Shown: positions 11,972 to 61,867 of the stretch, in pieces
Numbering within the stretch: the first letter of the stretch is position 1
How the letters are laid out: each line of letters begins with the position of its first letter
Source of the DNA: Candidatus Eiseniibacteriota bacterium
Lineage (GTDB): Bacteria; Orphanbacterota; Orphanbacteria; Orphanbacterales; Orphanbacteraceae
DNA length: 64,000 nucleotides
NCBI GenBank assembly: GCA_024276995.1
Contig: JAJRWB010000050.1
Coordinates: forward strand, 80,359 to 144,358
Direction: 5' to 3'
The notes under the pieces: generated by a model
The model's database searches: none
Told to the model about the DNA's origin: nothing
What the model saw: the letters and a program-made list of their open reading frames with translations, nothing else
Position numbers and translations under genes: made by a program

Positions 11972-12001
11972 GGTCCGGCTGAGGAGCGCGTCGCCGGCGC
12001 G

Positions 12002-17683: not shown

Positions 17684-17685
17684 CC

Positions 17686-22685: not shown

Positions 22686-22744
22686 ACCGGTTCTCGCCCA
22701 GGCTGTTTCTGAGGAGGTTCGTGCTCGCCACGTCCTTCCCCCCG

Positions 22745-44303: not shown

Positions 44304-45378
44304 TCGGAAGAGAGTGCATTCTCCCGCCGGGCGGAAGGATGCGGATACGGCCGACGCGGCCCGTCACCGATTCGAGGAGCGTCGCGCGTTTCTGAAGCGC
44401 GCCGGCGTTGCCGCCGTCCTCGCGGCAGGATCGACGTGGCCGGCGCTCGCTCCACCCGGATGGATCTTCTCGCTCCGCGATCCGGACGGAAAACGGGGGG
44501 CACCGAAAGAGAAGACCTTCCGCCTCCCCGAGGGGGGGTTCATCGTCGAGAAGCCGGCGACGGCGGCTGATCTGGGCGTGGCGCGCGGAACGGACATTCG
44601 CGCCATGATCCGCTCCGCGGTGGACGGCATCGGCGGTATCGCCCATTACATTCGAAAGGGCGACATCGTCGTGGTGAAGCCGAATGTCGCATTCGAACGG
44701 CCGGCGCTTCTCGGGGCGACGACGAATCCGGAAGTGCTCGCCGAACTGATCCGTCTCGTGAAGGAGGCGGGAGCCTCCGAGGTTCGCGTAGCGGACAATC
44801 CGATCGAGACGCCGGAGAACTGCTTCGCCCGGAGCGGCATCCGTGAGGCGGCCCTCGCGGCGGGCGCGAAGGTCTACCTTCCCTCACCCGCCGACTTTCA
44901 AGTTCTCAACGTGCCGGGCGCCGCGCTCATCGAGAAATGGCCCTTCTTCCGGCGGCCGTTCAAGGACGCCGCCAAGGTGATCGGCGTGGCGCCGGTGAAG
45001 GATCACAACCTGTGCGGCGCCTCGATGACGACGAAGAACTGGTACGGTCTTCTCGGCGGACGACGCAACCAATTCCATCAGAAAATCGATACGATCATCG
45101 CCGACCTGGCGCTCATGCTCCGGCCGACATTCGTTCTTCTCGACGGGACACGCGTCCTCTTCCGGAGCGGACCGACGGGCGGTTCTCTCTCGGACGTGCG
45201 CCCCGGCCGGACGGTTGTCGCCGCCGTGGACTCTCTCGCCGCGGATGCGTTCGGCTGGGAGGATCTTCTCCGCCGCGATCCCGGCCGGCTCCCCCGCTAC
45301 TTCGCCGAAACGGCGAAGCGCGGCCTCGGCAATCCGAATTGGCGGGAGACGGTAATCCGGGAGACGAGAATCGGATGA
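44293..45378 (+). CDS. DUF362-family protein with twin-arginine (Tat) signal
   Basis: Internal [28 protein letters not shown] (Tat motif) and a DUF362-like core ([14 protein letters not shown]..). The upstream part of track ORF 44107..45378 is junk. Confidence 0.65.
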
Positions 45379-47123
45379 GCGACGTGGGGAAAATGGGAAG
45401 GCCCTCCGGCCTCTTCCGGCCGAACCGGGACGGTACGCCGTGGTACGCCCGGGTTCTCCGGATCACCACGACGCGCATCGTCGCCCAAACGTTCTTCTTC
45501 ACGTTGTTCGTTTTTCTCCTTTGGGTCACGTGGTTCAGCCGGATGGGCGGCTATCCCGTTTCCCTCTTTCTCGAAATCGATCCTCTCGTCGGTATCGCCA
45601 CCGCCCTTTCGACGCACACCGTCTACCGTTGGCTTTGGCGGGGCCTATGGGTGCTCGTACCGACGCTCGTCGTCGGCCGCGTCTTCTGTAACTGGGTCTG
45701 CCCCTACGGCACGCTTCACCACTTCTTCGCATGGGTCTTCAATATCCGCGGCAACAGGAACAATATCGACAAGAACCGGTATCGGGACGCGCAGCAGATC
45801 AAGTACATCATCCTGGCGATCTTCCTGGTGCTCGCCCTGTTCGGCTCGCTCCAGATCGGCCTGCTCGACCCGATCTCCCTTCTCGTGAGAAGTATGACCA
45901 CGACCATCGCGCCCGCCGCCGACCTCGCACTCATCTCGCTCCCAGGGGCTCTCGCCGATACGGGACTTCGCGTGCCGAGCCTCACGTTCCTCTCCTCGTC
46001 CCCCGGCGCGGCGGAGCAGCGGGTCTTCGCCGGCGCATGGTTCATCGGACTGACAATCATCGGACTCGTCGGGATGAACCTGGTGATTCCCCGTTTCTTC
46101 TGCCGCGTGCTCTGTCCCCTCGGCGCGCTTCTAGGCGTGCTCTCGCGATTCTCCCTCTGGCGAATCGACCGGGATATCACGAAGTGCACCGATTGCGATC
46201 TATGCCTCAAGCACTGCGAGGGGGCTTCCGATCCGCAGGGCGCCCTTCGCAAGAGCGAGTGTTTCGTCTGCTTCAACTGCATCGACGACTGCCCCGAAGA
46301 CGCCCTCTCGTTCCGCGCTTCGCCGCTCCCCGCGACGGATCGGATCCGCGGTTCGCTCCGAGATGGAAGGGCGACGCTTTTCGGGAAAAAAGTGATCAGC
46401 CGCAACGCCGAGACCGTTGTCCGCCATGTCGACCTCCCCCGGCGGCGCTGGCTCTTCTCCGCCATGGCGGGCGTGCTCGCCTACCCCTTTCTCAGGCTCT
46501 CGCGCGCCGTGAACAAGCGCGGTTACAGTGAAAAGGCGATCCGGCCTCCCGGGACGGTGGAGGAGAGCGAGTTTCTCGAACGGTGCATCAAGTGCGATCA
46601 GTGTATCAACGTCTGCCCCACCAACGTGCTTCAACCCTCGCTGCTCGCCGAGGCGGGCCTCGAAGGCTTCTGGGCACCGGTGATGGACTTCAGCGTCGGC
46701 TTCTGCCAGTACAACTGCGTTCTCTGCTCCGAGGTGTGCCCCACCGGCGCGATACGCACGATCACGACGGACGAGAAACTCGGCAGTGGAAGGTTCGCCG
46801 GAAACGGACCGATCCGCGTGGGAACCGCGTTCTTCAACCGGGGCCGATGCCTTCCCTGGGCGATGGAAACGCCGTGCGTCGTGTGCGAGGAAGTGTGTCC
46901 CGTCAGTCCGAAAGCGATCGAAACGTACCGCGAACAGGCCGTCCGCTCGGACGGCTCGAAGGTGATTCTCAACAAGCCGTATATCCGTCCCGAGCTTTGC
47001 ATCGGCTGCGGGATCTGTGAACATGAGTGCCCGGTGATGGACGACGCCGCCGTTTACGTCACCGTGGCGGGTGAAACACGATCGAAGGAACGATCGCTCC
47101 TTCTCCTGCAAGGGGAAGGGTGA
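45375..47123 (+). CDS. NapH/MauN-type membrane polyferredoxin (two CxxxCP membrane motifs plus multiple 4Fe-4S clusters)
   Basis: ATG overlaps the DUF362 stop (ATGA). Motifs [12 protein letters not shown] and [12 protein letters not shown], then [53 protein letters not shown] and [12 protein letters not shown]. Confidence 0.75.
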
Positions 47124-47163: not shown

Positions 47164-48369
47164 GTGAGGAAAGCGGACAAGAAGATCAGCCGCCGGGAGA
47201 TGTTGAAGCTGAGCGCCGCCGCCGGGGCGATGGCGGCGACATCGGGTGTTCTCGGGGCGGAAAAGCTCTTCGCCGGGGAGGAGGAGGGTCTTCCGCAGAT
47301 CCCGCGGCGCGTGCTCGGGAAGACGGGCAGCACCATTCCGATTCTCCTGTTCGGGGCGGCCGTCCAGCTCGACCCCGATTTCGATCCGAAAATCGCCGAA
47401 GGTCTCCGCTACGGCTTGAACTACATCGACGCGGCCGATTGCTACGGCGGGGCGACGTGCGAAATGGCGGTGGGAAACCTGGTCGCGAAGCTCGATGCCC
47501 GCGAGGACGTGTGGATCACGAGCAAGAGCGACCGACACGATCCGAAAGGCCTCGAAAAGACGCTTCAGCGCGGGCTGGAACACCTGCAGACCGATTACGT
47601 CGATCTTTACTTCATGCACAACTTGAAGGAGGCGAAGTACCTGAGCGACGACATGCGGAGGATGGCGGAGAAATTGAAGAAGGAAGGAAAGATCCGCTAT
47701 TTCGGATTCTCCACCCACGCGCCGGCGTGCGCCCAGCTTCTCACCGCGGCGGCGGAAGCGGGCTGGATCGACGCGATCATGTTCCGGTACAACTTCCGCA
47801 TATACGGCGAGAAGGAGCTGAACGACGCCATGGACGAGTGCGTGAAAGCGGGTGTCGGCCTGATCGCCATGAAGACGCAAGGTTCGGAAGCATCGTTCCG
47901 TGACGCGTGGAGGAAGTACACGAGCGAGGGAAGGTGGACGAAACACCAGGCGGTGCTGAAGGCGGTCTGGGCGGACAGCCGGATCACGGCGGCCGTCTCC
48001 TCGATGGAATCGTTCACCCAGCTGAGAGAGAACATCGCCGCCGCCGTCGACCGGGAGGAACTCGGCCGGGCGGACTGGGAGGCGATCGAGCGATACGCCG
48101 CGGAGACGCGGCGGTACGCGTGCGACGGATGCGACCATATCTGCAACGCCGCGGTGGACGCACCGGTGAGAATCGGCGACACGATGCGTTTCTTGATGTA
48201 CCACGAGGTCTACGGCGAGCGGGAAAAGGCGAAGCGGCTTTTCGCCGGACTTCCCGGTGAGGCGAAACGGCTGCGCGGCGTCGACTTCAGCGGCGCCGAT
48301 TCCGCCTGTCCCCACGGAGTCGACGTGGCGGCGCACATGGCCCGATCGGCGGAGGTGTTCAACGCGTAG
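47164..48369 (+). CDS. aldo/keto reductase with Tat signal peptide
   Basis: GTG 47164 with GGAGG RBS gives VRKADKKISRREMLKLSAAAGAMAATSGVLGA (Tat). AKR motifs are present (YIDAADCYGG, DYVDLYFMHN). The C-terminal Cys cluster CDGCDHIC..ACPHG suggests an extra Fe-S/metal site. Confidence 0.75.
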   Translation: MRKADKKISRREMLKLSAAAGAMAATSGVLGAEKLFAGEEEGLPQIPRRVLGKTGSTIPILLFGAAVQLDPDFDPKIAEGLRYGLNYIDAADCYGGATCEMAVGNLVAKLDAREDVWITSKSDRHDPKGLEKTLQRGLEHLQTDYVDLYFMHNLKEAKYLSDDMRRMAEKLKKEGKIRYFGFSTHAPACAQLLTAAAEAGWIDAIMFRYNFRIYGEKELNDAMDECVKAGVGLIAMKTQGSEASFRDAWRKYTSEGRWTKHQAVLKAVWADSRITAAVSSMESFTQLRENIAAAVDREELGRADWEAIERYAAETRRYACDGCDHICNAAVDAPVRIGDTMRFLMYHEVYGEREKAKRLFAGLPGEAKRLRGVDFSGADSACPHGVDVAAHMARSAEVFNA

Positions 48370-48494
48370 GACTTCCGGCCGTCATCGAGACACTGTGGGA
48401 GGAGCGGGAGAATTTCTCCGACTCTTGGCGCTCGGATTTCGCATGAAGGGGAAGGCGCCCGCCGATCTCATTCGCGTAGCGCGCCGCCCCATGA

Positions 48495-51400
48495 TCACCT
48501 CAGGAGCGTGAGCCGCTTCGTCACTTCCTCGCCGCCGGCGCGCACCCTGAGGAAATAGATTCCCGTGGCCGCATCGCGGCGGTTGGCGGTTTCGCCGTTC
48601 CACCGCAACGTGTGCGGGCCGGCATCGAGCGGTCCGTCGTGAAGCACCCGGACGAGGGCGCCGCGGATGTCGAAGATCTCGACGGTCGCGCGATCGTTTC
48701 GGGGGAGGGCGAAATCGATGGTGACGAGCGCGTTGAACGGGTTCGGCCTGACGGCGCTCACCATGAGGCGGGACGGAATGTCCGCGGGAACGAGTGACGT
48801 GTTATCCAGCTGTGGGCGCCACGTTCCGTTTTTCGTATCGAGAAGTTCCACGGCGATCGGGCGGAAATCGACCCGGCCGGTCTTCGCCGCCGGGGCGATA
48901 CCGCCCAGGCGGAAGAGGGCGAGTTCGGTCCTGCCGCGCGGATCGTCATCGTACCAGAAAAGAGAGAGCCGGCCGGGCGAGTCGCCTTCCAGGTTCAGCA
49001 TGGTGGACGAGCGATCGATGGGAACGGCGAGGGCGTCGGCGACCGTGCCGTGAAGGCGCAGCGCCCGGAACGGTTCCTCCGACCGGAGAGCGATCACGGC
49101 GGCGCCGTCACCGGTGAGGAAGAACGAAACGGTCGGACCGTCCCCGGACCGGGCGATCTCCCCCTCGGCGAGCTCGCCGCCGAGAAAGACGAGATCGGCC
49201 ACGGTGATCCTTCCATCGCCGTTCGCGTCGGCGCCGAGGCTCTCCGCCGCAGCGGGCGAGGCGAGACCGAGAAGCACATCGAGAAGAGAACCCGCGTCGT
49301 CGAGACCGGCGGCGCAATCCCAGTTGTAATCGCCGGCGGGACGGGGCACCGGTGTAAAGCGTGGGAAGAGCCTGACGGGAGGACGACCCTCGCGGGGCGG
49401 GTCGATCTTCACTTCCACCGTCTCATCGTAGGCGACGCCGCACCGCCAGCTCGCCACGGAAGCGCTGATACGGATCGAATCGCCCCCCGCGAGGGTTCCG
49501 GAATCAGGCTCGAAAGCGACCCACGCCGGGGTGGGTTCGATCCACCAGTCGAGCGTATCCCTTCCCATGTTCCGGATGACGAACACGGAATCGGCGAAAG
49601 TGGTGTCCGTCCCGTTTCCGAAAGGAAGATCGGGCGAGCCGGCGGTCAGTTCGACTCCCGGTGCCACGTCCACTCCGAATGTTCTCGTGGGTGACGGATC
49701 GCCGGAACCGCACTTGTTCATCGATGAAACTCTCCAGAAATACTGATCGTCGAAATCGATCTCTCCGATGGAAATGATCGTGTCGGCCATGAGCGTGTCG
49801 ATCACGATTTCGGCGAAGGCGCTATCCCGGGCGACAAGCAGGGTGTAGCCGGTGGCTTCCGTTTCGCGTGACCAGGAGAATATCACGGGCAGATCGAGGC
49901 CGGATGCCTCATCATCCGGCTGCAGGAGGGCCGGCGCCGGGCGGGGGGCCATGATCGATCCCTGAACCTGGCACGCCCCCACGGTTTCGCCGCACGTGTT
50001 CACCGAAGCGACGCGGTAGAGATACGAACGTGCGATCTCCACTTCCATATCATTCCAGCTGTTCTCCCCGAGCGCGGGACCGACGGCGGCTCGAAGCTCG
50101 AACGATCCCGAGGACTGGGAGAGTTTCCTGTAGATCTTGAACTGTGAAATCCCCTCATCCACACCGGCCGCGGGCATATTCCACGTGACGGTGATCCTGT
50201 CGCAAAGATCCGACGACGCGGAGCAGCCCTCCGGGGCGGACGGGAGCGGCGGACGAGCACCACTGACCGTGCACATCGCCGCCGATACGTAGCATCCGTT
50301 CCCCGCTTCGATGGCGTACGACGACGTATCGCCGTACGCGATCTGCGTATCGATCCATTCGGTCACACCGGCGCCGACCGAGTCGAGCACGATTCCCTCG
50401 GGCAGGCTGTAGATCCGGAACCATTCCACGTCCGATCCACCGGTGACCGGAGGCGACCAGGAGAGATAGACGCCCCCGCACGAATCGGAAGACGCGGTGC
50501 ACAAGCTGTCGGGTAGGGATCCCACGGGCCCGGGAATCCGCGCCGTCACGGTGCACGCCTCCGCCGACCACCCGCAGCTGTTCAGGGCGTAGATGAGATA
50601 GCGGTAGTCGACGCCGTCCTGGGGCGGAGCGTCCGACGTGGAGAGAACGCCTTGCCCCACCGAATCGATGCGAACCAGACCGTCGCGAAGGACGACATAT
50701 CCTTCGGTGGCCGTGGGCGAGGCAGCCCAGGTGATTCTCAGCGTATCGCAGTCGATCACCTCTACGGTACAGCTCTCCGGCGGAGAGGGGATCGAGCCGA
50801 CGGTGCGGCCGGTATCGATCACGCCCGCCGATTCTTCGCAGTTGAACGCTCGTAATGTATAAATGAGTTCCGTGTCGGTGGGAACGTCGGTGTACTGAAA
50901 CACATCCGGACCGACCTCGGTGACCACCGGCGGTGCGCCGCGGGTGATCCTGTAACCGTCCACGATTCCTCCCGCGACGGGCGGCCCCCAGGTAAGCACC
51001 ACCTCACCACACCCCTCTTTCGTAGCGGAGAAGAGAGTCGGAGGCCCGGGAGCGGTGAGCGCCCGCCCCGAGTCGGAGCACGACCCGATGGAACGACCGC
51101 ACTGGTTCCATGCAATCACCTCGTAGTTGTGCGTGACGTTGCTGTCGGCGCCAGCGTCGATCACCTGGTAGGGAGGGCTGACGAGCGTATCGATCGGCAC
51201 GCCGTCACGCTCTACCACGTAGAAATCGACGATACTCGGGTCGGTCGCCCCGCTCCAGGTCACCGTCACCCGGCCGCAGAAACTGTCCGACGCGGAGCAC
51301 GCCGTCGCGGTCGGCGGGAGACCGAAACGCCTTCCCGAATTCGACGCTCCGTTCAGCGAGTATCCGCACGTGCTCTTCGTGCGGAGCCAATAACTCGAGA

Positions 51401-53387
51401 TCACCATCGAATCGACAAGGGAGTCGACGAACACCGTGGGGCTCCCCTTCGCCACCACCCCGATCGAGTCACCCTCCCTGTAGATGATGTACTCCTGGAA
51501 GGCGCCCGCCGTGGTGTCCCAGCTGAGACTCACGAAGGAGCAGAGCGAGTCGCTCGCGGTGATCGCCCCGGGCATGGGGGGCGCCTCTCCCATGACGCCC
51601 GAATCGGAACACGACGATATCGCCGCGCCGCAGCCGCTTCGGGATTGCACCGAGTAGAGATGGACCGAATCGACGGTGGCGAAGGAATCGCGGAACGAAT
51701 TGCCCGGATCGGCGACCGTGCCGATCGAATCGTCGTCCCTGAAGATCACATATTCATCGACGCTTCCCGATGCCGTGACCGGGATCCAGCTGACGAGCAC
51801 CTCCTGGCAGAGGTTGTCCGACGCGGTGCACGAGTCGACCGAAGGGGGAAGACCGATCCGCATGCCGGTATCGGTGGAGATGATGTTCGAGAGGCCGCAC
51901 GCGTTGCGCGTGCGCACCGTATAGGTATACACGACCTGTGAATCGACGACGTCGTCGTACCATTCCGTGGGTGCGGTCGGGCTCACGGTGCCGATGGAAT
52001 CGACGCCGCGATAGACGACATAGTAGTCGAATGAACCGGCCACCGCCTGCCACCGGACGAAGATATCGGCGCATCGATCATCACTGACAGGAAAGAGCGA
52101 CACATCCGGAGGCAACTCGATGCTGAAGCCGTTGTCGGGGATCGCCCACACCGTATCGCACGGCGTTATGGCGGCGACGTTGTACTCGTAGATCACCCCC
52201 GGCACGGCGAGGCTGTCGGCGTAAAACTCCGTGCCCGGAGGGAGAGAGTCGATGACGTCGCTGTCCCGGGTGAGGATGTAGTAGTTCCCCTCCGGCATGT
52301 TCGCAATCCACGACACGTTCACCGCGCCGCACGTGCTGTCCGAGGCGATCACCGATCCCGGCGCGGCCGGAGACTGGGGCGCGGTTCCGGTATCGATGTT
52401 GGACGGGCCGCTCGGGCCGCACGTGGAAACCGCCCAGACCCAGTAATCGTAGACAACTCCCGGAACGGCGAAGGTGTCGACAAAAGCGGGCCCCGCCGCA
52501 TCGACGACGATCGTATCGGTCGACACCGTCCCCGGATCGTACCGGCCGATGTAGTACGTGATTCCCCCGGCGGTCGAGCTGTCGCTCCAGCTCAGGGATA
52601 CGCCTCCGCACGCCGTGTCGCTCGCCGTGAAGTTGTAGGGCGGATAGAGACTGTCGCACGCGATCGTCATGTCGTCGATCATCCACCCTCGAAACCCGTT
52701 CCGCGCGCTGTCCACCGTGGCGAAGATGAAGCGAAACTGCATCCGTCCCCCGGCGGCGGAATTGACGATATACTTCTTTCGGATCCATACGCCGTCGGCG
52801 CTTAATCCGCCCGACGAATACGGGACCGCGGGATCGGTGGCCTCCGATTCGAGCGTGTCCACCAACACGTCGAGAAATGTGAAATTCCGCCCCCCGTCGG
52901 TGGAAAAATCGATGGTCATCAGGTCCTTCGAATAGAAACTGAAACCCTCCACTTCCCACCATGTCTGAAAGGAGAGGACCACGTCGGAATACGAATTCAT
53001 CGCCATGATCGGCGTGAAAAACGTGTCCGCCCTGGCGGCGAAGGAGAGTCCCCCATTCCCGGCGCTCTGCGCCGCCGGATCCCACGGGGCGACATATGTC
53101 CCCGTCGATTCTCCCGAGAGGGTGATATAGCCGTTTCCGCTGGGAGCGGGAGGCCAACTCGATGTGCCGGGAAAATTGACAAGGCTGTCCTTGACGGCGC
53201 CGATGACGAACACCGTGTCGGGCGCACGGGTCACGTGCCAGCCACCGAGCAGCATGAAAGACGGCGCGGTGACTCCCTCGAACGATTCGAAGAGGGGAAC
53301 TTCGAGGGTATCGTTTACAGCCCGGACTGGGGCGGCACTGAGAGCGACCGCGGCGAAGACGACGAGAAGACGTTTCAGTAGATCCAT
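48495..53387 (-). CDS. giant (1630 aa) secreted cell-surface protein: more than 10 tandem FN3/Ig-like repeats, dockerin-like Ca-binding loop, FlgD-Ig/T9SS-type C-terminal sorting domain
   Basis: Signal peptide MDLLKRLLVVFAAVALSAAPVRA. Repeats have the recurring pattern C..V.LSW......YY.V.R......D. The loop is DANGDGRITVADLVFL. The C-terminus RPNPFNALVTIDFALP..GIYFLRV..KRLTLLR is the same domain class as the two selenoproteins. Confidence 0.85.
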   Translation of the reverse strand: MDLLKRLLVVFAAVALSAAPVRAVNDTLEVPLFESFEGVTAPSFMLLGGWHVTRAPDTVFVIGAVKDSLVNFPGTSSWPPAPSGNGYITLSGESTGTYVAPWDPAAQSAGNGGLSFAARADTFFTPIMAMNSYSDVVLSFQTWWEVEGFSFYSKDLMTIDFSTDGGRNFTFLDVLVDTLESEATDPAVPYSSGGLSADGVWIRKKYIVNSAAGGRMQFRFIFATVDSARNGFRGWMIDDMTIACDSLYPPYNFTASDTACGGVSLSWSDSSTAGGITYYIGRYDPGTVSTDTIVVDAAGPAFVDTFAVPGVVYDYWVWAVSTCGPSGPSNIDTGTAPQSPAAPGSVIASDSTCGAVNVSWIANMPEGNYYILTRDSDVIDSLPPGTEFYADSLAVPGVIYEYNVAAITPCDTVWAIPDNGFSIELPPDVSLFPVSDDRCADIFVRWQAVAGSFDYYVVYRGVDSIGTVSPTAPTEWYDDVVDSQVVYTYTVRTRNACGLSNIISTDTGMRIGLPPSVDSCTASDNLCQEVLVSWIPVTASGSVDEYVIFRDDDSIGTVADPGNSFRDSFATVDSVHLYSVQSRSGCGAAISSCSDSGVMGEAPPMPGAITASDSLCSFVSLSWDTTAGAFQEYIIYREGDSIGVVAKGSPTVFVDSLVDSMVISSYWLRTKSTCGYSLNGASNSGRRFGLPPTATACSASDSFCGRVTVTWSGATDPSIVDFYVVERDGVPIDTLVSPPYQVIDAGADSNVTHNYEVIAWNQCGRSIGSCSDSGRALTAPGPPTLFSATKEGCGEVVLTWGPPVAGGIVDGYRITRGAPPVVTEVGPDVFQYTDVPTDTELIYTLRAFNCEESAGVIDTGRTVGSIPSPPESCTVEVIDCDTLRITWAASPTATEGYVVLRDGLVRIDSVGQGVLSTSDAPPQDGVDYRYLIYALNSCGWSAEACTVTARIPGPVGSLPDSLCTASSDSCGGVYLSWSPPVTGGSDVEWFRIYSLPEGIVLDSVGAGVTEWIDTQIAYGDTSSYAIEAGNGCYVSAAMCTVSGARPPLPSAPEGCSASSDLCDRITVTWNMPAAGVDEGISQFKIYRKLSQSSGSFELRAAVGPALGENSWNDMEVEIARSYLYRVASVNTCGETVGACQVQGSIMAPRPAPALLQPDDEASGLDLPVIFSWSRETEATGYTLLVARDSAFAEIVIDTLMADTIISIGEIDFDDQYFWRVSSMNKCGSGDPSPTRTFGVDVAPGVELTAGSPDLPFGNGTDTTFADSVFVIRNMGRDTLDWWIEPTPAWVAFEPDSGTLAGGDSIRISASVASWRCGVAYDETVEVKIDPPREGRPPVRLFPRFTPVPRPAGDYNWDCAAGLDDAGSLLDVLLGLASPAAAESLGADANGDGRITVADLVFLGGELAEGEIARSGDGPTVSFFLTGDGAAVIALRSEEPFRALRLHGTVADALAVPIDRSSTMLNLEGDSPGRLSLFWYDDDPRGRTELALFRLGGIAPAAKTGRVDFRPIAVELLDTKNGTWRPQLDNTSLVPADIPSRLMVSAVRPNPFNALVTIDFALPRNDRATVEIFDIRGALVRVLHDGPLDAGPHTLRWNGETANRRDAATGIYFLRVRAGGEEVTKRLTLLR

Positions 53388-54595
53388 TGGAGAGTCACCG
53401 CCGCGTCAAAGCCGCTCATGTCGACGGCGCCTTCCTCGGCGTTTCCGGTAAGATACGCGCCGTCGAGGGTGACGGTCGTCTTGTCGGCGATGTAGTAGAT
53501 CACTCCGGCGCCGAGATCGAGGAGGTTCGCCGATCCAAGAAGTCTTTGGGCCGGCTCCTCTCCCGGGAAGGCGAATTCACTGAAATGGGAGTAGCTCGTG
53601 AAAAGACGGATGTCGAAGCGATCGGAGAGTTCACGGCCGTAACGGACCATCGCCTGCTGCATCCCTCCCGGCAGTCCCTGCTGGAGGTACTCCTCGAGGG
53701 TCATCGTTTCGATGTCTCCCTCGCCCACACCCTCCACGTCGGTGCCCTTCCCCTTGACTACGAAAAAGAGCTGTCCGTCGAGCCGTTGCCGCTCCGCGAT
53801 CCGCAGGCCCGCCGATGCGAGAAACTCGACCTGGTCGCCCTCCTCGTAGATCACCTCACCGTTGCGCTCGTCTTTCGAAAAAAGCCTGTAGCGGAGATCG
53901 CCCTTCCATTCGAACCGGGCGCTTCCGGCGCCGAGAGCGCCGCTCACGCCGGCGGCGAAGAACGCCTCGTTGCCCGGCTTGATACGCACCGTCTCGTCGC
54001 CCTCCTCGCCCTTCAGGTAGTCGTACTCTCCCTTGTACTGGAAGCCGGCGCCCAGCGAAGCCGTAATACTTCTCGTCACAGTGAACGCCCTGGCGCCGCT
54101 CGCGAAAAGACCGGGGCCTTCGCCGAAACGCTTCAACCTCAGACCGAGAATCCTGTTCGCCACCACGCCGGTGACGACCACCTGATTCGCTTCGATCAGC
54201 GCTTTCCCCGTGGGAAGAGTCACGCCGCCGCCGATCCAGTAACGCCCCGAGTCGAAACGTTTCGAGCCGGAAAGCTCCACGTCGGTGAAACCGCTCAGGT
54301 CGGAATCGGTCAGGTCGCCGTTACTCGTCGCCGATCCACCGGAAAGATAGATCGAAACCTCCCCGTCCCGGCCGATCGGCTTGCGCACGAAGAGGGGAGA
54401 GACGAACTCGCTCACTTTCAAATCGGCCGAACCGGCCTTGCTGAGCGTGATGCTCCGCGTGGAAAAGGACGTCCTTCCGATCACGCCGGGCGGCGGCTCG
54501 AGAACCACCTCCGCCGCCCAAGAAAACGGGGGAAGAATCGCCGTTGCGGCAAGAATGAAAAAGACGAACGCCCGGGAAAATGAAATACCCTTCAT
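53375..54595 (-). CDS. outer-membrane beta-barrel protein (porin-like)
   Basis: Signal peptide MKGISFSRAFVFFILAATAILPPFSWA, amphipathic beta-strand periodicity, C-terminal aromatic (..TLQWIY). Overlaps neighbours by 4 and 13 nt (operon). Confidence 0.65.
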   Translation of the reverse strand: MKGISFSRAFVFFILAATAILPPFSWAAEVVLEPPPGVIGRTSFSTRSITLSKAGSADLKVSEFVSPLFVRKPIGRDGEVSIYLSGGSATSNGDLTDSDLSGFTDVELSGSKRFDSGRYWIGGGVTLPTGKALIEANQVVVTGVVANRILGLRLKRFGEGPGLFASGARAFTVTRSITASLGAGFQYKGEYDYLKGEEGDETVRIKPGNEAFFAAGVSGALGAGSARFEWKGDLRYRLFSKDERNGEVIYEEGDQVEFLASAGLRIAERQRLDGQLFFVVKGKGTDVEGVGEGDIETMTLEEYLQQGLPGGMQQAMVRYGRELSDRFDIRLFTSYSHFSEFAFPGEEPAQRLLGSANLLDLGAGVIYYIADKTTVTLDGAYLTGNAEEGAVDMSGFDAAVTLQWIY

Positions 54596-55881
54596 GGCTC
54601 ATTCACCCTTATAGTGACCGTGCCGCTTCCCAGGCCGAGGGGCCTCACCGTCGAGAGATCCCTCCCCTCTCCGACGTCGGGAAGCGGGGTGGGCGAGAGG
54701 AAGGAGGCGGTCGTTTCGAGACGGCTCAGCCGGCGATCGAGAACGGGAGCTTCCATCTCCGTCTTCGCGATGTCGGTGACCATCTCCTTCGTTCCCGCCG
54801 TCCGCTCTCCCCTCTCCTGGGCGAGGAAGAAAATCGGGTCGAGCCGGACCGCTTCGTCGAAGAGATTCGCCGCGCGTACGAAATCACCTTCGTCCTCGGC
54901 CGCCAAGGCGTCGCAATACGCGAGGAACGCCTGGAAGCTCGATGTCGGGATCTCGCCGATCGCCTCCCGCTCGGTGCTGCCGAGCGTGTAACCGAGTTCT
55001 TCCGCCACCGAGTAGACGATCCTCTTTTCCAGCTCGAAGAAATCGTCCAGCCGGCCGCTGATCGAAGAGGGCGTCCCGATTTCGCCGGTAATATTATTTA
55101 CAATGTAATAATCGAAGCGAATCTCGTCTTTTCCCTCGAGCGGGGTGATCGTCCCGCCGAGGGACCATCCGGCGCCGAGCATGGCGTCGAGAGAGAGGGC
55201 GGCGAGAGGATCGAATCCGGCGGAGCGGGATTTCTCGATCTCCCGGGTAAGCGCCTCGAACCGGAGCCGCTCCACGAGGAAGAGCCCCTCCACATGCGAG
55301 AGGTCGTTGATCAGCTGCTCGGCGAGACCTTTCCCCAGGTTCCCGTACGTCTCCACCTCGGCGAGGACGTCGAAATAGCGGACCGCGAGGACGTCGGGCG
55401 CCATGCGCGCCGGTTCGGCCATGTCCTCTTTCGCTCTTTCGGCGTACACTTTCCGAACGAGCCGGGTGATCCGCCCGCGCATGGCGCGCGCCACGTGGGT
55501 TCGCCCCATGGTGCGGGGGTACGAACGGTACGCCTCGATCGCCTTTTCCCACTCCCCCTTTCCCTCCCAGGCGAGACCCAGGAGAAGAGGTAGCGAGTCG
55601 TCGTCGGGAGAGAGGGTCTGCGCCCGGGTGAGAGCGTCGACGGCACCGTCGTAGTTTCCCTGCTCGAGGCGCACCCTCCCGAGATCGCGCAGGAGGGAAC
55701 CGTCGGAAGGATCGGTCTCGATCCGCTCGACGAGGAGCGACTCCGCCTCGGACCAGCGGCCGCCGTCCAGAGCATCGTCCAGAGGCCCCCTCCCGGAGAA
55801 GCCGCACGAGAGCATGAGCGTGCCGGCAACGAGGGCACCGGACACGCCGAGCGCCTTCAGGAATCGCGAACCTCTTTTCAT
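54592..55881 (-). CDS. lipoprotein with N-terminal TPR repeats and C-terminal CsgG-like domain
   Basis: The real gene is the C-terminal 429 codons of track ORF 54592..56676 (MKRGSRFLKALGVSGALVAGTLMLSCG, lipobox). CsgG-like motif RYFDVLAEVETYGNLGKGLAEQLINDLSHVEGLFLVERLRFEALTREIEKS. The upstream 265 codons of the track ORF are Arg-rich junk. Confidence 0.6.
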   Translation of the reverse strand: MKRGSRFLKALGVSGALVAGTLMLSCGFSGRGPLDDALDGGRWSEAESLLVERIETDPSDGSLLRDLGRVRLEQGNYDGAVDALTRAQTLSPDDDSLPLLLGLAWEGKGEWEKAIEAYRSYPRTMGRTHVARAMRGRITRLVRKVYAERAKEDMAEPARMAPDVLAVRYFDVLAEVETYGNLGKGLAEQLINDLSHVEGLFLVERLRFEALTREIEKSRSAGFDPLAALSLDAMLGAGWSLGGTITPLEGKDEIRFDYYIVNNITGEIGTPSSISGRLDDFFELEKRIVYSVAEELGYTLGSTEREAIGEIPTSSFQAFLAYCDALAAEDEGDFVRAANLFDEAVRLDPIFFLAQERGERTAGTKEMVTDIAKTEMEAPVLDRRLSRLETTASFLSPTPLPDVGEGRDLSTVRPLGLGSGTVTIRVNEP

Positions 55882-57017
55882 CGGTCCTCCAGCGGCTCTT
55901 CGCCCGCGGCGACGCGCCGACCGTACAACCACGCCTCGAGGGAGAGAATCCGGGAGGCGATCCGTTCGTCGCCCGGCCGGCGTGCCGCGGCCGACTTCCA
56001 CTTCTCGAGGGCGGCCGTGTAGTCGCCATCCTCTTCGAAACGGATCGCTTCCCCCGTTTCGAGAAGAAAGGGAAGATACCCCTTGCCGGCGCCCCACACC
56101 AGTTCCTTCTCGTCGAACAGGTCGTTCATGGCGCGGCTCGCCGATTTCTTCTTGCCATTGTAGGCTTCCACCACGCCGTCGATTTCCGGCCCGAGGAGAT
56201 CGACCACGAGGCGCCTCTCCAGGGCGATCACATCCCGCCCGTTTCGGACCTTGCCGTCCACCTTGTCCGCGAGAAGGACCTCTCCCGTCGCCGTCGCCAC
56301 GAGGCGCACGCCGATGCGGATCCGTTCCGGGTCGACCATCATCACACTGCCGAAGAGAAACGCGTGGGCACCGCACAGTCTTCCCGCGGCGACGCGCAGA
56401 TCGTCGTCGAGCGCCTCTTCTCCCTTCGACCGGGCGATCTCCCGCTCCAGACCGAGGAGCCGGGCCCTGTCCACCAAGTCGATATCGGTGACCGCGGACA
56501 GGTCGTATTGCACAAGCTGTCCGAGACCTGCGGCGAATCGATCGATATCGAAAGGGGGCTCTCTCCCGGTGAGTACCGAATGATTCCAGAACTCCCCCAC
56601 GGCGATCGTGTTGATCCGGCGGCCCGTGCCGCCTTCCCCCCTTCCGGCGAGACTGTCCCGCGCCTGGTAGAAGCATTGTACCACCGGCGCGGCGTATCGG
56701 CGAGGGGGCAGAAGCGAGGCGGCCGGGGTGATCCGGAGCATGGCGGCCACGTCACGCGCCACCTGCGCCGTCTCGCCGAGGGAACAATGGATCGCCACGA
56801 GGGTGCTCAGCGCGCGAAGCCGGGAACGCTCCGGCTCGCCGTCGCGCTCGAGCAGCGCGCGGGCACACGATTCGGCGAGATCGAAGCGCAATTCATGATA
56901 AAAGGCGAGATTGTCCCGGCGGAAACGGGAGATCGCTTCATCGTCTACCGGCGCGGCACCGGCCGGCAAGGCGACACCGGCGAAGAGCACCGCCATGACG
57001 AAAAAAGCAACGGCCAT
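55878..57017 (-). CDS. CsgG-like domain protein paralog 2 (secreted, TPR-like helical ends)
   Basis: Signal peptide. Motif INTIAVGEFWNHSVLTG..FAAGLGQLVQYDLSAVTDIDLVDRARLLGLEREIARS matches the CsgG pattern (xIAVxxFxN..; ML..L..S..F.VVER..L..L..E). Confidence 0.6.
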   Translation of the reverse strand: MAVAFFVMAVLFAGVALPAGAAPVDDEAISRFRRDNLAFYHELRFDLAESCARALLERDGEPERSRLRALSTLVAIHCSLGETAQVARDVAAMLRITPAASLLPPRRYAAPVVQCFYQARDSLAGRGEGGTGRRINTIAVGEFWNHSVLTGREPPFDIDRFAAGLGQLVQYDLSAVTDIDLVDRARLLGLEREIARSKGEEALDDDLRVAAGRLCGAHAFLFGSVMMVDPERIRIGVRLVATATGEVLLADKVDGKVRNGRDVIALERRLVVDLLGPEIDGVVEAYNGKKKSASRAMNDLFDEKELVWGAGKGYLPFLLETGEAIRFEEDGDYTAALEKWKSAAARRPGDERIASRILSLEAWLYGRRVAAGEEPLEDR

Positions 57018-57023
57018 AAATGA

Positions 57024-58109
57024 TCATCCCCCGAGGAGGAGCGGTATGATGCGCACTTTCCGCGACGCCACTTCGTTCCCCGGATCGAGGGAGAGGACTT
57101 CCTTCCATTTCTCGAGCGCGGCACGGTAGTCCTTCCGGTCTTCGAGGGCGAGCGCCTCGGAAACCGCGAGCGTCGATTCCACATAGCCGTTCCACGCTTC
57201 GCGGGAGGCGGATCTCTCCTCGAAGAAGAGGGCCATTTCCCGGGCGATGCCCGACGGTTCACCCGCCACATCGACGATTAGGGAGTCGATCGACTCGGCG
57301 ATTTCGAGGACGAGCTTCTTCTCCAGGTCGAGGAATCGGCGCGGATCGCCGCCGAATTCACCCTCCACCTGGTGGACGGAAAGAATCTTCCCGGTGGCGG
57401 TGTGCACAACGCGGGCGGTGATGATCACTTCCTTCCCGGAAATGATCATGTACTGGCCGTAGATGAAACAGTGGGCACCGAGGAAGCGGCCCGCTTTGAC
57501 GGCCGCCTTTGGATCGGCAAAACCGCCCTGGTTCATCTCGATCTCGCCGAGAAGCTGGTTCACCCTCTGGCGGTCGACCACCTCGAGCGACGTGGCCCGC
57601 GAGAGATCGTACATGATCAGGTGCTGGAACGCTCCGCGAAAGAGATCGAAATCGAGCTTGTGAAAATCACCCTTGTAGATCGAATTGTTCTCGAAATCGC
57701 CCACCGCCACCGTCCGGATATCCATGGTGCCCGGGTAGAGGGAATCGCGCACCGTGTGGAAAAGCTCGATCACGGCGGGTGGATACTCGTAGTCGGGGGA
57801 GAAGCGCGCGCGGCGGTCGGCATCGAGCATCCGCGCCACTTCTTCCCGGGCGGCGGCGGCGTCTCCCATGGCGACGAGCGCCGAGGCGCGCCACTTCCGT
57901 GCCTCGAGGGCGTTCGGCGATGCGGCGGGCTCGCCGTCGATGAGTGGCGCGGTGAGTTCGAGAACTTCCGCGTATTCGCCCGCCCAAAATGCTTCCGCCG
58001 CGCGGCTCACCCGAGCCTCCGGCCCGGCCGAGACGCCCGGCGAATAGAGGAGAAACGCAAGGAGGAGGAATGCCGCGCCGGCGACCGTCCTCGGGATGGT
58101 GCTATTCAT
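57024..58109 (-). CDS. CsgG-like domain protein paralog 3
   Basis: Signal peptide. Motif IRTVAVGDFENNSIYKG..FRGAFQHLIMYDLSRATSLEVVDRQRVNQLLGEIEMNQ. The architecture is clearly paralogous to 55878..57017. Confidence 0.6.
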   Translation of the reverse strand: MNSTIPRTVAGAAFLLLAFLLYSPGVSAGPEARVSRAAEAFWAGEYAEVLELTAPLIDGEPAASPNALEARKWRASALVAMGDAAAAREEVARMLDADRRARFSPDYEYPPAVIELFHTVRDSLYPGTMDIRTVAVGDFENNSIYKGDFHKLDFDLFRGAFQHLIMYDLSRATSLEVVDRQRVNQLLGEIEMNQGGFADPKAAVKAGRFLGAHCFIYGQYMIISGKEVIITARVVHTATGKILSVHQVEGEFGGDPRRFLDLEKKLVLEIAESIDSLIVDVAGEPSGIAREMALFFEERSASREAWNGYVESTLAVSEALALEDRKDYRAALEKWKEVLSLDPGNEVASRKVRIIPLLLGG

Positions 58110-58186
58110 GTCGGCTCCTTTCCATCGGTTCCACGCGATGCCACTCTAGCACTTCATAACGGAAGGACACAAAGAAAAGGATAGAT

Positions 58187-59233
58187 TCATCGCACCCGCG
58201 CCTGCTCCAGAAGCGACGCGATCGTCTTCGCCACGACGGCGCAACCGGCCGGCGAGGCGTGGATGTGATCGAGAAGGGGCTCCTCGGCGGCCTCGATGAA
58301 CGGTTCGATCAGGCTGATCACGGGGGAGCCGGTTTCGCTCCCCACACGAGCGATGAGAGGCTGGTAGACGATCAGTTGCGCATCCCCCTTTCTCACCTGG
58401 TTCCGGTACGGCCAGATGAGGAAGATCACAGGCACCCCCCGCGCGGCGCATACTTCATGGATCGCCCGGAGATTCTCCTCGAATTCCTCCGGCGTAACGC
58501 GCGGTTCCTTCCCCCGCCGGTCTCCCTCCACCGTCTTCCCACCGGCCACGGCGCCCGAGCGGCGAAGGAGATCGGTGAGGAGGCGGTAGAAACGGCTTTT
58601 TCCGAGGACCGACCGCACCGTCCCCATCCGGAGGAGCCGTCCCGTTTCGGCGTCGGTTCTCGATCCCCATACATCGGAATCATTGAAGCCGAAAGTCGCG
58701 ATCACGAGATCGGGCTTGAGATCGAAGCCGGCCCCTTCGAGGTATTTCAAGCCCTGGTATGAACTGTATCCGGGCACGCCGGCGTTGATCACCTCCACGC
58801 CGTCGCCGAGGGTGCGGCTCATCTCTTCTCGCAGCCGCGCGGGCCACGTCTGGGAGTCGTCCACACCGAGACCGAAGGTGCACGAATTCCCCACGGCGAG
58901 CACGCGAAAACCGCGCTTCCTTTCCCGCACCTCGGGCGACCTCAATCCGAGGCTGTTCGTCGTTACCTCGAAGTCGACACGTCGATCCTTCATCCGGCCC
59001 TGCACGCGAAACGAATCGAGGCCCGGCCTTAGTTTCCAGAAGAGAACCGGGTCGAAGAGCATTGTTTCGTTCAGCCCGGGAAGCCCGAGAACATCGATGA
59101 TCTGCCGGTGCTCCTCGTAGAGCGTTCCCTTCCCCGGTTTCCAGACGAGTCGGGCGCCCCCCTCGAAGAGAGTCGCCGCCGCCAGGAGGACGACGATCGA
59201 GTAGAGAAACCGTCTCTTTCGGGAGATGTCCAT
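58187..59233 (-). CDS. SGNH/GDSL-family hydrolase (acyl-esterase/O-acetyltransferase partner)
   Basis: Block I GNSCTFG (catalytic Ser), block III GVPGYSS, block V near DHIHASP. N-terminal membrane anchor. Divergent from the MBOAT gene. Confidence 0.75.
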   Translation of the reverse strand: MDISRKRRFLYSIVVLLAAATLFEGGARLVWKPGKGTLYEEHRQIIDVLGLPGLNETMLFDPVLFWKLRPGLDSFRVQGRMKDRRVDFEVTTNSLGLRSPEVRERKRGFRVLAVGNSCTFGLGVDDSQTWPARLREEMSRTLGDGVEVINAGVPGYSSYQGLKYLEGAGFDLKPDLVIATFGFNDSDVWGSRTDAETGRLLRMGTVRSVLGKSRFYRLLTDLLRRSGAVAGGKTVEGDRRGKEPRVTPEEFEENLRAIHEVCAARGVPVIFLIWPYRNQVRKGDAQLIVYQPLIARVGSETGSPVISLIEPFIEAAEEPLLDHIHASPAGCAVVAKTIASLLEQARVR

Positions 59234-59361
59234 GGATGTCAGTAAACCACAGCGGCGGGCGGGCCGTCGAGTGGCGGCGGGACGGCATCTTGGAAATCGG
59301 GCGCACGGTGGGTTACAATCGCCATTCGACTCTTCAAAACGATCACCCGCGGGGAACGACG

Positions 59362-60774
59362 TTGCTCTTCAACACGTGGACTTTTTTCGCTTTCGCCCTC
59401 GTGGTGTTCCCTCTCTATTATAAGGCGTCTTTCCGCTGGCAGAATCGGCTCCTCCTCGCGGCAAGCTACGTTTTCTACGGAGCCTGGGACTACCGGTTCC
59501 TTTCGCTCATCCTGTTCTCCACCGTGGTCGACTACATCGTGGGGAGGAGAATCGCCACCACCGAGGTAGCGTCCGCGCGAAGACGCCTCCTCCTGGTCAG
59601 CTGCGTCGTCAACCTCGGTCTTCTCGGCGTGTTCAAGTACTTCAACTTCTTCGCCGACGGCTTCCAGTCGATGCTCGGGATGGCCGGTATCCACACGTCG
59701 CCCGTTTCCCTTTCCATCGTTCTTCCCGTCGGCATCTCGTTCTACACGTTTCAGACGATGAGCTACACGATCGACATCTACCGCCGCAAACTCGAACCGG
59801 TGAGGAACTTCACCGATTTCGCTCTTTTCGTGGCGTACTTCCCCCAGCTGGTCGCCGGGCCGATCGAGCGGGCGAAGAATCTTCTTCCCCAGATCGTTTC
59901 CCCCCGAACGGTGTGCCGCCGCCAGATCATCGAGGGAGCATGGCTCATCGGATGGGGCCTGTTCAAGAAGGCGATCATCGCCGACAACATCGCGATTTTC
60001 GTCGACGAGGCGTTTTTTCCCGGAAACCATTGGGCATCGGGATCGCTCTGCCTCTTCGCGATCTATGGATTCGCCATCCAGATCTACTGCGACTTCAGCG
60101 GCTACTCCGACGTGGCGCGGGGCCTGGGCAAGCTGATGGGCATCGAGATCATGCAGAATTTCAACCTTCCCTACATGGCGACGAGCCCGCAGGAGTTCTG
60201 GCGGCGCTGGCATATCAGTCTTTCCACGTGGCTGCGCGACTACCTTTACGTCTCGCTCGGCGGAAACCGCCACGGCAGATGGATGACGTACCGAAACCTG
60301 ATGCTCACCATGGTTCTCGGCGGACTGTGGCACGGCGCGGCGTGGACTTTCGTCCTATGGGGCGTCTACCAAGGAGCGCTCCTCGCGGTGCATCGTTATC
60401 TTTTCGTCGATCTCGGCTTGGCCGGGCCGGGCGGGAAGGCGGGGCGGTGGATTTCCCGGTTGGTGATGTTCCATCTCACCTGCTTCGGATGGCTGATCTT
60501 CCGCGCCGGCAGCGTCGCTCAAATCGGCAGCTTTCTTCGCAGGATCTTCACGAGTTTCATCCTCGACCTGAACGAGGCGCGGACCGTGTTCGCCGTTCTC
60601 TTCTTCGGTGGAATCCTCGCGCTGGTGGAAATGTGGATTCGAAATGTCGATGACCCGCGGGTTCGTCCCGGGTGGAACGGCCCGATCGGCGCGGCGGCGG
60701 CGACGATCCTCCTGATCGTGGCGCTCATCTTCTGGCCCCCCCAGATCAAGGAGTTCATCTATTTCCAGTTCTGA
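59362..60774 (+). CDS. MBOAT-family membrane-bound O-acyltransferase (AlgI/DltB/PatA-like)
   Basis: TTG 59362 gives MLFNTWTFFAFALVVFPLYY (the classic MBOAT start). The conserved His region is WRRWHISLSTWLRDYLY..LWHGAAW. Confidence 0.8.
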   Translation: MLFNTWTFFAFALVVFPLYYKASFRWQNRLLLAASYVFYGAWDYRFLSLILFSTVVDYIVGRRIATTEVASARRRLLLVSCVVNLGLLGVFKYFNFFADGFQSMLGMAGIHTSPVSLSIVLPVGISFYTFQTMSYTIDIYRRKLEPVRNFTDFALFVAYFPQLVAGPIERAKNLLPQIVSPRTVCRRQIIEGAWLIGWGLFKKAIIADNIAIFVDEAFFPGNHWASGSLCLFAIYGFAIQIYCDFSGYSDVARGLGKLMGIEIMQNFNLPYMATSPQEFWRRWHISLSTWLRDYLYVSLGGNRHGRWMTYRNLMLTMVLGGLWHGAAWTFVLWGVYQGALLAVHRYLFVDLGLAGPGGKAGRWISRLVMFHLTCFGWLIFRAGSVAQIGSFLRRIFTSFILDLNEARTVFAVLFFGGILALVEMWIRNVDDPRVRPGWNGPIGAAAATILLIVALIFWPPQIKEFIYFQF

Positions 60775-60823: not shown

Positions 60824-61867
60824 ATGATCGTCTTCCTCGTCGCCGAGTTCACCGTCCGCGCCCTCGATGCGCGGCGTGTCGATCCGACCACCTACCCCGG
60901 GGCGATGAAGATCGCCGCACGCGAGAGCATCGACTTCATCTTCACCGGGACGTCCCGGACCGCCGGAGGGATCGCTCTTTCCGTATGGGACGAGGAACTT
61001 TCCCGTCACGAAGGGCGCGCGGTGCGTTCCCTCAACCTGGCGCAGCCGTACTCGGGCGGCGCACCGAACTATTTCGGACTGCGGGAACTCGCCGACCGAC
61101 GAGCACGGAGTCTTGCCGGCTGCACCGTTTTTTTCGAACTCTCGGCGGGCCTTCCCGCGTTCACACGGAAGTGGGACGATCCGTGGTATTTCGAGGGGAA
61201 CGCGCAGATCGTCGTCGACTACATGCGTCCCGCCGATCTCGCCCGCTTCCTCTCCACCGACGAACCGTTCGACCGGAAGGCGGATATCGTCTTCCGCTAC
61301 TTCACGAGGACGTCACGTCTGTTATCGCTCCGCCGGTCGCTCCAGCGCTCCGTCTCGTGGCGCGGCCTCGCGATCACGCGACGGCTTCTCACCGCGCTCG
61401 GAGGGGAGTACCGCGAGAATCTTCTCGGCGCGAAGCTTCCGCCGATCCGCGTGCTTCGCACCGACGAGCATGGCGTCCGGTTGCAGAGAGAACGGATCCG
61501 CGCGAGAACGAGCCGGGACGCGCTCGCCCGGCAGAAACCGCTCCGGCCGTGGAAGGAAACCATCGTCTGCGCCGCGGCGATCATGCTGAAGGAGAGGGGA
61601 ATCGCCGTGGCGTTTCACGAGGTGCCCGCGCCGTCGTTCGCGTGGACGGTGAACGAAACGGAAACGAGGCGCCTCGACCGCGCCGACTTCGAGGCATGGG
61701 CGAAGGGAAACGACATCCCGATCATCCGAAGCCACATCGCCGTGACGGACGACGACTTTCCCGACCTCTCCCACCTCGCGCGAAGCAGGCGAGAGGAGTA
61801 TACCCGCGCGCTGGCGGCGGATTTCGTCGCCCGAGAGGGGAAAGGGGGACGGGAGCCGCCTGATTGA
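60824..61867 (+). CDS. hypothetical protein, possible accessory to the O-acyltransferase pair
   Basis: 347-aa ORF 50 nt after the MBOAT stop, moderately complex composition, N-terminal hydrophobic segment. No family recognized. Confidence 0.4.
   Translation: MIVFLVAEFTVRALDARRVDPTTYPGAMKIAARESIDFIFTGTSRTAGGIALSVWDEELSRHEGRAVRSLNLAQPYSGGAPNYFGLRELADRRARSLAGCTVFFELSAGLPAFTRKWDDPWYFEGNAQIVVDYMRPADLARFLSTDEPFDRKADIVFRYFTRTSRLLSLRRSLQRSVSWRGLAITRRLLTALGGEYRENLLGAKLPPIRVLRTDEHGVRLQRERIRARTSRDALARQKPLRPWKETIVCAAAIMLKERGIAVAFHEVPAPSFAWTVNETETRRLDRADFEAWAKGNDIPIIRSHIAVTDDDFPDLSHLARSRREEYTRALAADFVAREGKGGREPPD

Follow-up and report, generated by a model that had tools for sequence, protein, structure and literature searches.

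We analysed a stretch of 64,000 nucleotides (hereafter the window) from a Candidatus Eiseniibacteriota bacterium (contig JAJRWB010000050.1, positions 80,359 to 144,358), in which five adjoining genes of the minus strand, here called G1 to G5, encode three related proteins with tetratricopeptide repeats (TPRs; G1, G2 and G3), an outer-membrane beta-barrel (G4) and a giant surface protein ending in a sorting-type C-terminal domain (CTD; G5). The core of this unit is a co-translated pair, the TPR lipoprotein G3 and the barrel G4, which in Eisenbacteria is tied to a single CTD-bearing surface protein of giant size; this is firmly supported by the data presented below. More tentatively, and with a probability that we put at roughly 0.4, we propose that G3 and G4 act as a cargo-dedicated outer-membrane receptor or anchor for G5, analogous to, though not homologous with, the PorE-PorP-cargo sets of the T9SS (type IX secretion system). 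Beyond the gene structure, folds, paralogy and synteny reported here, this proposal supposes a physical G3-G4 complex, an interaction of this complex with G5 and the presence of a T9SS in the organism.

Gene order and its conservation

The first-pass annotation of the window, made from the sequence alone, had described five co-directional and tightly packed genes between positions 58109 and 48495, and we confirmed this layout (Table 1). The only gap, of 6 nt, separated G1 from G2; the other neighbours overlapped, by 4 nt for G2/G3 and for G3/G4 and by 13 nt for G4/G5. High third-position G+C was observed in all five genes, in a window whose G+C content was 58-68% per 2-kb segment, mostly 60-66%. 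Two long Arg/Gly-rich open reading frames (ORFs) lying over real genes in this high-GC DNA (54592-56676 and 55094-56029, both on the minus strand) were rejected as frame artefacts. The first of them, the mechanical ORF around G3, would be 694 aa long and corresponds to G3 extended upstream across G2, which is read in another frame. We placed the start of G3 further downstream, since the N-termini of 16 homologues match at this point, a lipobox Cys follows and the stop codon of G2 is overlapped by 4 nt.

Table 1. Coordinates of the genes of the module, of the G5 sorting domain and of the adjoining hydrolase gene (positions in the window).
Feature	Position	Strand	Description
G1	57024-58109	minus	361 aa (ORF listing and translation)
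G2	55878-57017	minus	379 aa (ORF listing and translation)
G3	54592-55881	minus	429 aa; start at the MKRGSR methionine at 55881
G4	53375-54595	minus	406 aa (ORF listing and translation)
G5	48495-53387	minus	1630 aa (ORF listing and translation)
G5 C-terminal domain, aa 1548-1630	48498-48746	minus	T9SS type-A sorting domain / FlgD-Ig fold
GDSL/SGNH hydrolase gene	58187-59233	minus	77 nt upstream of G1; Lipase_GDSL_2 2.6e-17

Conservation was assessed by context look-ups, tblastn and hidden Markov model searches of fetched loci (designated L001, L003 and so on), with a genome scan and a metagenome scan that yielded four loci each. A G3-type gene was located directly upstream of a G4-family barrel gene in all 16 distinct loci with readable upstream sequence (16/16), which span Eisenbacteria, KSB1-like and other lineages, and the stop and start codons of the two genes overlapped in most loci checked. 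G4 was followed by a full-length G5 orthologue in nine Eisenbacteria-type loci (the window, L003, L004, L005, L006, L009, L018, L019/20, and L021), the orthologues being 41-58% identical in L003-L006 and having fewer repeats in L019. The G3-G4-G5 order, recovered at 37-74% protein identity in eight independent contigs other than the window, is thus not a chance arrangement.

Conservation of all five genes as one unit, which the first-pass annotation had put forward for checking, was found in part: it holds for the pair and, in the nine loci, for the triad with G5, but the one other locus in which both G1 and G2 were observed next to the triad was that of a close relative (L004), which was also the only locus with a G2 orthologue. 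A G1-type gene preceded the G3-type gene in L004 and also in the distant, non-orthologous loci L012 (KSB1-like), L013, L014, and L016, and the G1-G3-G4 order is therefore probably ancestral. The named homologues come from Candidatus Eisenbacteria metagenome-assembled genomes (MAGs). One MAG harboured two modules (L003/L007 and L010), each by a different giant CTD protein, the one of L010 being 1564 aa long and divergently transcribed. The paralogous barrel gene of L010 (9824-11051, MAG LQ108M_Bin_12) is broken up into a pair of ORFs that overlap each other (9824-10558 and 10446-11051), and corresponds either to a frameshifted pseudogene or to an assembly error.

The encoded proteins

G1, G2, and G3 each combine TPR helices with an alpha/beta domain of about 140 aa whose best Pfam match was CsgG (PF03783). 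The score of G1 (26.1 bits) was above the cut-off of 20.8 bits, the match spanning only positions 7-96 of the 210 of the profile, and those of G2 (14.4 bits) and G3 (17.7 bits) were below it. When 29 members of the G1/G2 family were compared with Pfam, CsgG was recovered for all of them (29/29 at E<=0.1; best E 1e-13), LpoB for 14/29 and FlgO for 7/29, so that CsgG stayed the best-scoring family and was not outscored by another lipoprotein family of the kind that had been named as a possible competitor (such as LpoB or FlgT). In BLASTP comparisons, G1 and G2 were 34% identical over 311 aa (E=8e-46), and G1 and G3 29% identical over the core domain and the next TPR pair (E=6e-14); by these alignments the three proteins are true paralogues.

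G1 starts with a signal peptide and a helical/TPR region, continues with the alpha/beta domain (aa ~125-275) and ends with a TPR pair; a match to TPR_19 was also obtained. G2 exhibited the same architecture, and both proteins have cleavable signal peptides without a Cys. A lipobox is present only in the third paralogue, G3, where its Cys26 is conserved; G3 also gave strong TPR matches in Pfam. When the PDB was searched with the G3 and G1 family profiles at full length, the hits were TPR proteins. Homologues of G1 (28 sequences) included some named "TolB-like" or "CsgG/HfaB family". G1 is a periplasmic protein and G3 an outer-membrane lipoprotein, and of the three CsgG-like lipoproteins initially described, the paralogy and the likeness to CsgG hold for all three but the lipidation for G3 only.

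An AlphaFold2 model of G3, obtained from a 17-sequence alignment with a predicted local distance difference test score (pLDDT) of 81.8, exhibited a TPR region (aa 33-119), a long helix (129-155), the alpha/beta domain (161-295), TPR-like helices (302-360) and another helix (365-395). The alpha/beta domain resembles the N-terminal domain of TolB. In CsgG, two membrane hairpins per subunit build up a 36-stranded pore (PMC13631591). The central strands of the G3 domain (237-248 and 253-262) are connected by a four-residue turn and its last strand runs directly into a helix, leaving no space for two such hairpins. In the HMMER alignment, which was split, the CsgG segment around residues 129-138 and the strands that follow it appeared as an insertion relative to the G1-G3 core profile, and the same hairpin region was deleted in a pairwise alignment with an E. 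coli CsgG sequence that was verified only for the segments present in the HMMER alignment. The trimmed core-domain profile retrieved only CsgG from the PDB, with a non-significant E-value (0.13). The initial idea that these proteins form curli-type secretion pores did not survive this comparison: G1-G3 are not secretion pores but TPR proteins, located in the periplasm or tethered to a membrane, whose pore-less alpha/beta core is the one also found in CsgG, PelC, LptE, and PqiC.

The model of G3 ends with a disordered tail (aa 399-429, positions 54595-54687) whose last residues form a conserved strand-like motif. This motif, G-T/S-G-T followed by alternating hydrophobic residues, was recovered in all lineages (for example GSGTVTIRV, GTGTINIHV, STGTIVVTG, GTGTVIIQG), and it is kept in the G3-type proteins of L010 and L012-L017 even between lineages that are less than 35% identical overall.

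The AlphaFold2 model of G4 was a confident barrel (pLDDT 83.6; predicted template modelling score 0.77), in agreement with its annotation as an outer-membrane beta-barrel. We counted about 16 membrane strands from the DSSP string of the model, the first one starting at aa 39 after the signal peptide, and the C-terminus is aromatic (…LQWIY). Two extracellular loops are long and include a helix, L3 (aa 128-161) and L6 (aa 282-308). Most residues that are invariant in the G4 family are located in L3 (P128, G130, R156, G158, E159, G160), for which a role as inward-folded plug or constriction is suggested. The known structures closest to the model were CdiB (20.6), the PelB barrel of PelBC (19.1) and FhaC (18.9), followed by BamA (17.6), OprB (17.3), FadL (14.4) and PorV (12.2), the latter only at rank 58. 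This ranking indicates that G4 is not a 14-stranded FadL-type barrel like PorV or PorP, and it speaks against the PorV-like shuttle first proposed for this gene.

No family of Pfam or NCBIfam matched G4. The Pfam searches yielded no POTRA, ShlB or two-partner secretion (TPS) match in G4 or G5, and no DUF560 match in G4 or its family. A profile search with the G4 family against 1.84 billion representatives recovered 1177 clusters with E<=1e-3, of which 768 reached E<=1e-10; almost all were 370-430 aa long. Comparison of 48 family members with Pfam gave sporadic matches to generic outer-membrane protein families and none to PorP_SprF. The named members of the family, all called hypothetical, belong to Candidatus Eisenbacteria (Eiseniibacteriota), candidate division KSB1 and "Chlorobi bacterium CHB1". 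We also considered a BamD/BamA-like housekeeping role, which was rejected: G4 has no POTRA, the module is present twice in one MAG (L003/L007 and L010), and the E-value of the BamD-like match was ~0.08-0.1.

G5 starts with a sequence (MDLLKRLLVVFAAVALSAAPVRA) that by inspection resembles a signal peptide, followed by an unassigned N-terminal domain of ~220 aa (aa 24-246), ten repeats (aa 247-1150), another FN3/BACON-like region, a calcium-loop motif and the CTD. The repeats, of about 88 aa each, are FN3-like with conserved cysteines, and the whole protein contains 34 Cys. Pfam searches retrieved fn3 (1.7e-18) and, weakly, BACON_2, and nothing was found in a sequence search against the PDB. The C-terminal region (aa 1548-1626) matched TIGR04183 (29.1 bits; cut-off 23) and Por_Secre_tail (PF18962, 29.3 bits; cut-off 27), and the CTD also matched FlgD_ig (34.5 bits, over the curated cut-off). 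The initial description of a giant FN3-repeat protein with a T9SS-type CTD was therefore correct, and with a sorting domain above cut-off and an N-terminal signal peptide, G5 has the features of a type-A CTD cargo. Judging from its sorting domain and its Cys-rich repeats, a T9SS-type route is its most likely way out of the periplasm.

Two other proteins of the window, encoded at 25773-26693 and 27003-27941 on the plus strand, are paralogues of ~310 aa (51% identical) that combine an Omp28-like N-terminal domain with a FlgD_ig/T9SS-type CTD as in G5; CTD proteins are thus common in the source organism. In L003, L005, L018, and L019, the gene that adjoins the G3-type gene on its upstream side encodes an Omp28-like CTD protein of ~310-360 aa, which is thus part of the cluster in other Eisenbacteria; its two orthologues of the window are 27 kb away from the module. 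Our literature search found no report of a T9SS in Eisenbacteria, nor of this module.

The calcium-loop motif of G5 (aa 1385-1402, positions 49182-49235) is dockerin-like, GADANGDGRI(N/T)VAD, and is kept in the G5 orthologues. Proteins with a cohesin domain recur beside the module, as a lipoprotein in L016 (10168-11322; 25.3 bits, over cut-off) and as weak matches in L012 (14811-15533) and L015 (17642-19194). There are hints here of a cohesin-dockerin-style surface assembly; no similarity was detected between the region preceding the CTD of G5 and the small cohesin-like lipoproteins encoded after the barrel in distant loci.

Possible functions of the G3-G4 pair

If G3 and G4 are a receptor or anchor for G5, the latter would be exported by the Sec system and would then cross the outer membrane via a T9SS-type pathway of the organism that is encoded elsewhere. 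The G3-G4 complex would serve afterwards as the G5-specific outer-membrane receptor or anchor. G4 would keep the cargo at the membrane, and G3, together with G1 and G2, would act as its periplasmic scaffold by way of the TPR and alpha/beta domains, while the tail strand of G3 may dock into or onto the barrel. G1 and G2 are two extra periplasmic paralogues added in this lineage.

The precedent is found in Bacteroidota, in which porP-like genes of the T9SS are located beside cargo genes, often also beside porE-like genes, and in which the TPR lipoprotein PorE and the barrel PorP/SprF go with an adjacent type-B CTD cargo (PMC9143113, PMC12618676). The module studied here likewise associates a TPR outer-membrane lipoprotein and an outer-membrane barrel with a large CTD-bearing surface protein. 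As for PorP/SprF, the barrel gene adjoins the CTD gene, G4 even overlapping the start of G5, with the same order in eight other loci. Paralogous copies also occur within a genome, each by its own cargo, and those of the MAG with two modules therefore behave like porP/sprF paralogues. The G3-type protein of L013 (7379-9004, 541 aa) contains an inserted PG_binding_1 peptidoglycan-binding domain and therefore parallels PorE, which binds peptidoglycan. Large proteins with a FlgD_ig CTD follow the barrel in two further loci, a 1342-aa CARDB/BACON/FlgD_ig protein in L012 and, after an intervening lipoprotein, a 2162-aa protein with ten PKD domains and FlgD_ig in L015; both are in favour of a link between barrel and cargo.

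The building blocks are nevertheless different. PorP, SprF, and PorV are 14-stranded barrels of the FadL family, whereas G4 is about 16-stranded and devoid of a PorP_SprF match; in place of the beta-propeller and OmpA_C of PorE, G3 has a domain of the CsgG/TolB-N fold; and the hosts are Eisenbacteria instead of Bacteroidota. Several observations weigh against the receptor or anchor proposal. Known PorP-type shuttles serve type-B CTDs, and the CTD of G5 is of type A. A Pfam scan of 47 ORFs of the window recovered none of the T9SS core families (SprA/Sov, PorK/L/M/N, PorU, PorV), as the first-pass annotation had already stated. Finally, no CTD giant follows the barrel in the distant loci L013, L016, and L017, in which this position is occupied by a 226-aa lipoprotein, a 384-aa cohesin-domain lipoprotein and a 391-aa protein without annotation, respectively.

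The earlier suggestion of an export or anchoring apparatus dedicated to the giant protein is compatible with the data for G3 and G4, which are persistently linked to a CTD giant in Eisenbacteria, and the second module near another CTD giant (L010) fits with it; it is not supported for G1 and G2, which have no lipobox and were observed together beside the triad elsewhere only in L004. By analogy, the locus would be a variant, made of non-homologous parts and based on a barrel family without annotation, of the cargo modules known to combine a lipoprotein with a barrel; its function is one that we infer.

A broader reading, possible though somewhat more doubtful to us, is that G3 and G4 represent an unrecognised and widespread two-component outer-membrane machine of candidate phyla, made of a 16-strand barrel and of pore-less CsgG-fold lipoproteins with TPRs. 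Such a machine would either be dedicated to giant CTD adhesins, which it would export or anchor in non-homologous replacement of PorE/PorP, or work as a protein-handling PelBC. The barrel family on which this reading is based comprises no fewer than 1,100 clusters when grouped at 50% identity.

It seems unlikely that the pair is an autonomous translocon, in which G4, capped on the periplasmic side by G3 (and G1/G2), would itself be the channel for G5 or for another adjacent protein, be it as a protein-exporting counterpart of PelBC or as a POTRA-less system of the TpsB or Slam type. This alternative is kept alive by an analogy of architecture, since PelBC associates a barrel of 16 strands and TPRs with a ring of pore-less alpha/beta lipoproteins (PMC12141448), and G4 resembles it (PDB 9H80) in being 16-stranded with the PelB/PgaA/BcsC barrel fold. 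In Pel, however, the barrel itself carries the TPRs and PelC, a small lipoprotein of a single domain, assembles into a 12-mer, whereas here the TPRs are carried by the alpha/beta lipoprotein and the barrel stands alone; moreover, the linked product is a protein and pel-like biosynthesis genes (pelA, pelD-G) are missing. Unlike the TpsB/Omp85 proteins CdiB and FhaC, G4 has no periplasmic POTRA, and no TPS domain is present on G5. In Slam (type 11) systems, the TPRs and a 14-strand DUF560 barrel are part of one protein, and TPR_Slam was only weakly matched by members of the G1 family (4/29, best E 0.0035). The type-A CTD of G5 and the cysteines of its repeated domains (34 Cys) also argue for export as a folded T9SS-type cargo and not for threading through the 16-strand barrel.

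Still less probable is a role in envelope sensing or signalling, with G1-G3 as TolB-like TPR sensors or adaptors that, together with G4, would report the state of the cell surface to kinases, G5 being a co-regulated neighbour. Ser/Thr kinase genes are indeed located directly upstream of the module in L014 (3914-5809), L016 (4713-6542) and L017 (6023-7597), two of them with PEGA. Type VI secretion system (T6SS) genes were observed less than 10 kb from the module in L013 (a VipA/VipB fusion, 11015-12607) and L016 (TssF/G/K, 15123-19146), and a full T6SS cluster lies beside a G1 homologue and a PEGA protein in L001 (1-7223). In addition, some homologues are labelled "TolB-like protein" by JGI, and aa 235-386 of G3 gave a weak match (E=4.6e-8, far under cut-off) to TIGR04510, a family of cyclases in which this pair of domains occurs. 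However, this match is only at the level of the domain, the kinase and T6SS neighbours are confined to distant loci, and neither in the window nor in any of the Eisenbacteria loci does a kinase, cyclase or regulator adjoin the module. Signalling would also leave unexplained the strict adjacency of G4 and G5, with overlapping codons, in nine loci.

We consider improbable, more so than signalling, that G3 and G4 form a split TPR-plus-porin exporter, as in PelBC, PgaA, BcsC or AlgK-AlgE, devoted to the export or modification of an exopolysaccharide with the GDSL hydrolase and an MBOAT acyltransferase encoded nearby. No glycosyltransferase or synthase adjoins the module in the window or in the 16 loci, the MBOAT gene is not conserved, the nearest polysaccharide genes are ~30 kb away, and the neighbour that is consistently linked to the pair encodes a protein.

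Finally, true curli-type function, with genuine CsgG-type amyloid (curli or holdfast-anchor) secretion pores, is effectively excluded by the missing hairpins, despite CsgG being the best family for G1-G3, the lipidation that G3 shares with CsgG and the name "CsgG/HfaB family" given by NCBI to one homologue: the proteins also carry TPR extensions, the domain is only ~140 aa long, G1 and G2 are not lipoproteins, the PDB profile match is non-significant, and no curli genes, nor any csgA/B/E/F-like or hfaA/D-like neighbours, were present among the window ORFs scanned with Pfam.

If G3-G4 is a cargo-specific outer-membrane receptor or exporter, the logic of a lipoprotein plus a barrel beside their cargo would have arisen with unrelated parts outside Bacteroidota. 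There would also be a working hypothesis for a large outer-membrane protein family that neither Pfam nor NCBIfam covers, and a further case of the CsgG/PelC/LptE alpha/beta fold being reused as the periplasmic partner of a separate barrel. In any case, "CsgG/HfaB family" labels on these TPR proteins should not be taken to denote curli-type pores.

Surroundings of the module

The GDSL/SGNH hydrolase gene located upstream of G1 is a possible sixth member of the transcription unit. Its orthologues (54-58% identity) occupy the same upstream position in L003 and L004, but not in more distant loci. Divergent from this gene, an MBOAT (AlgI/DltB-like) acyltransferase gene (59236-60774, plus strand) is followed by a gene for a 347-aa protein without Pfam match (60824-61867, plus strand), a pair that is not conserved beside the module in other loci. 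At the other end, the downstream neighbour genes converge on G5. Scanning positions 48000-59600 for consensus promoters and terminators gave counts no different from those of shuffled sequences, and no hits resulted when the window was scanned for Rfam families and tRNAs.

Among the genes of the plus strand, those encoding a DUF3373 outer-membrane protein, a multihaem cytochrome c, a DUF6599 protein and a large 4Fe-4S protein follow one another at 39758-47123, an arrangement that resembles a cluster for extracellular or periplasmic electron transfer; in L004, the module is likewise flanked by DUF6599, Fer4 and Aldo_ket_red genes. A glycan-related cluster (17449-25463, plus strand), ~30 kb from the operon, encodes a PMT_2 glycosyltransferase, a Wzx-type flippase (Polysacc_synt), three proteins without Pfam match and a GT2 protein.

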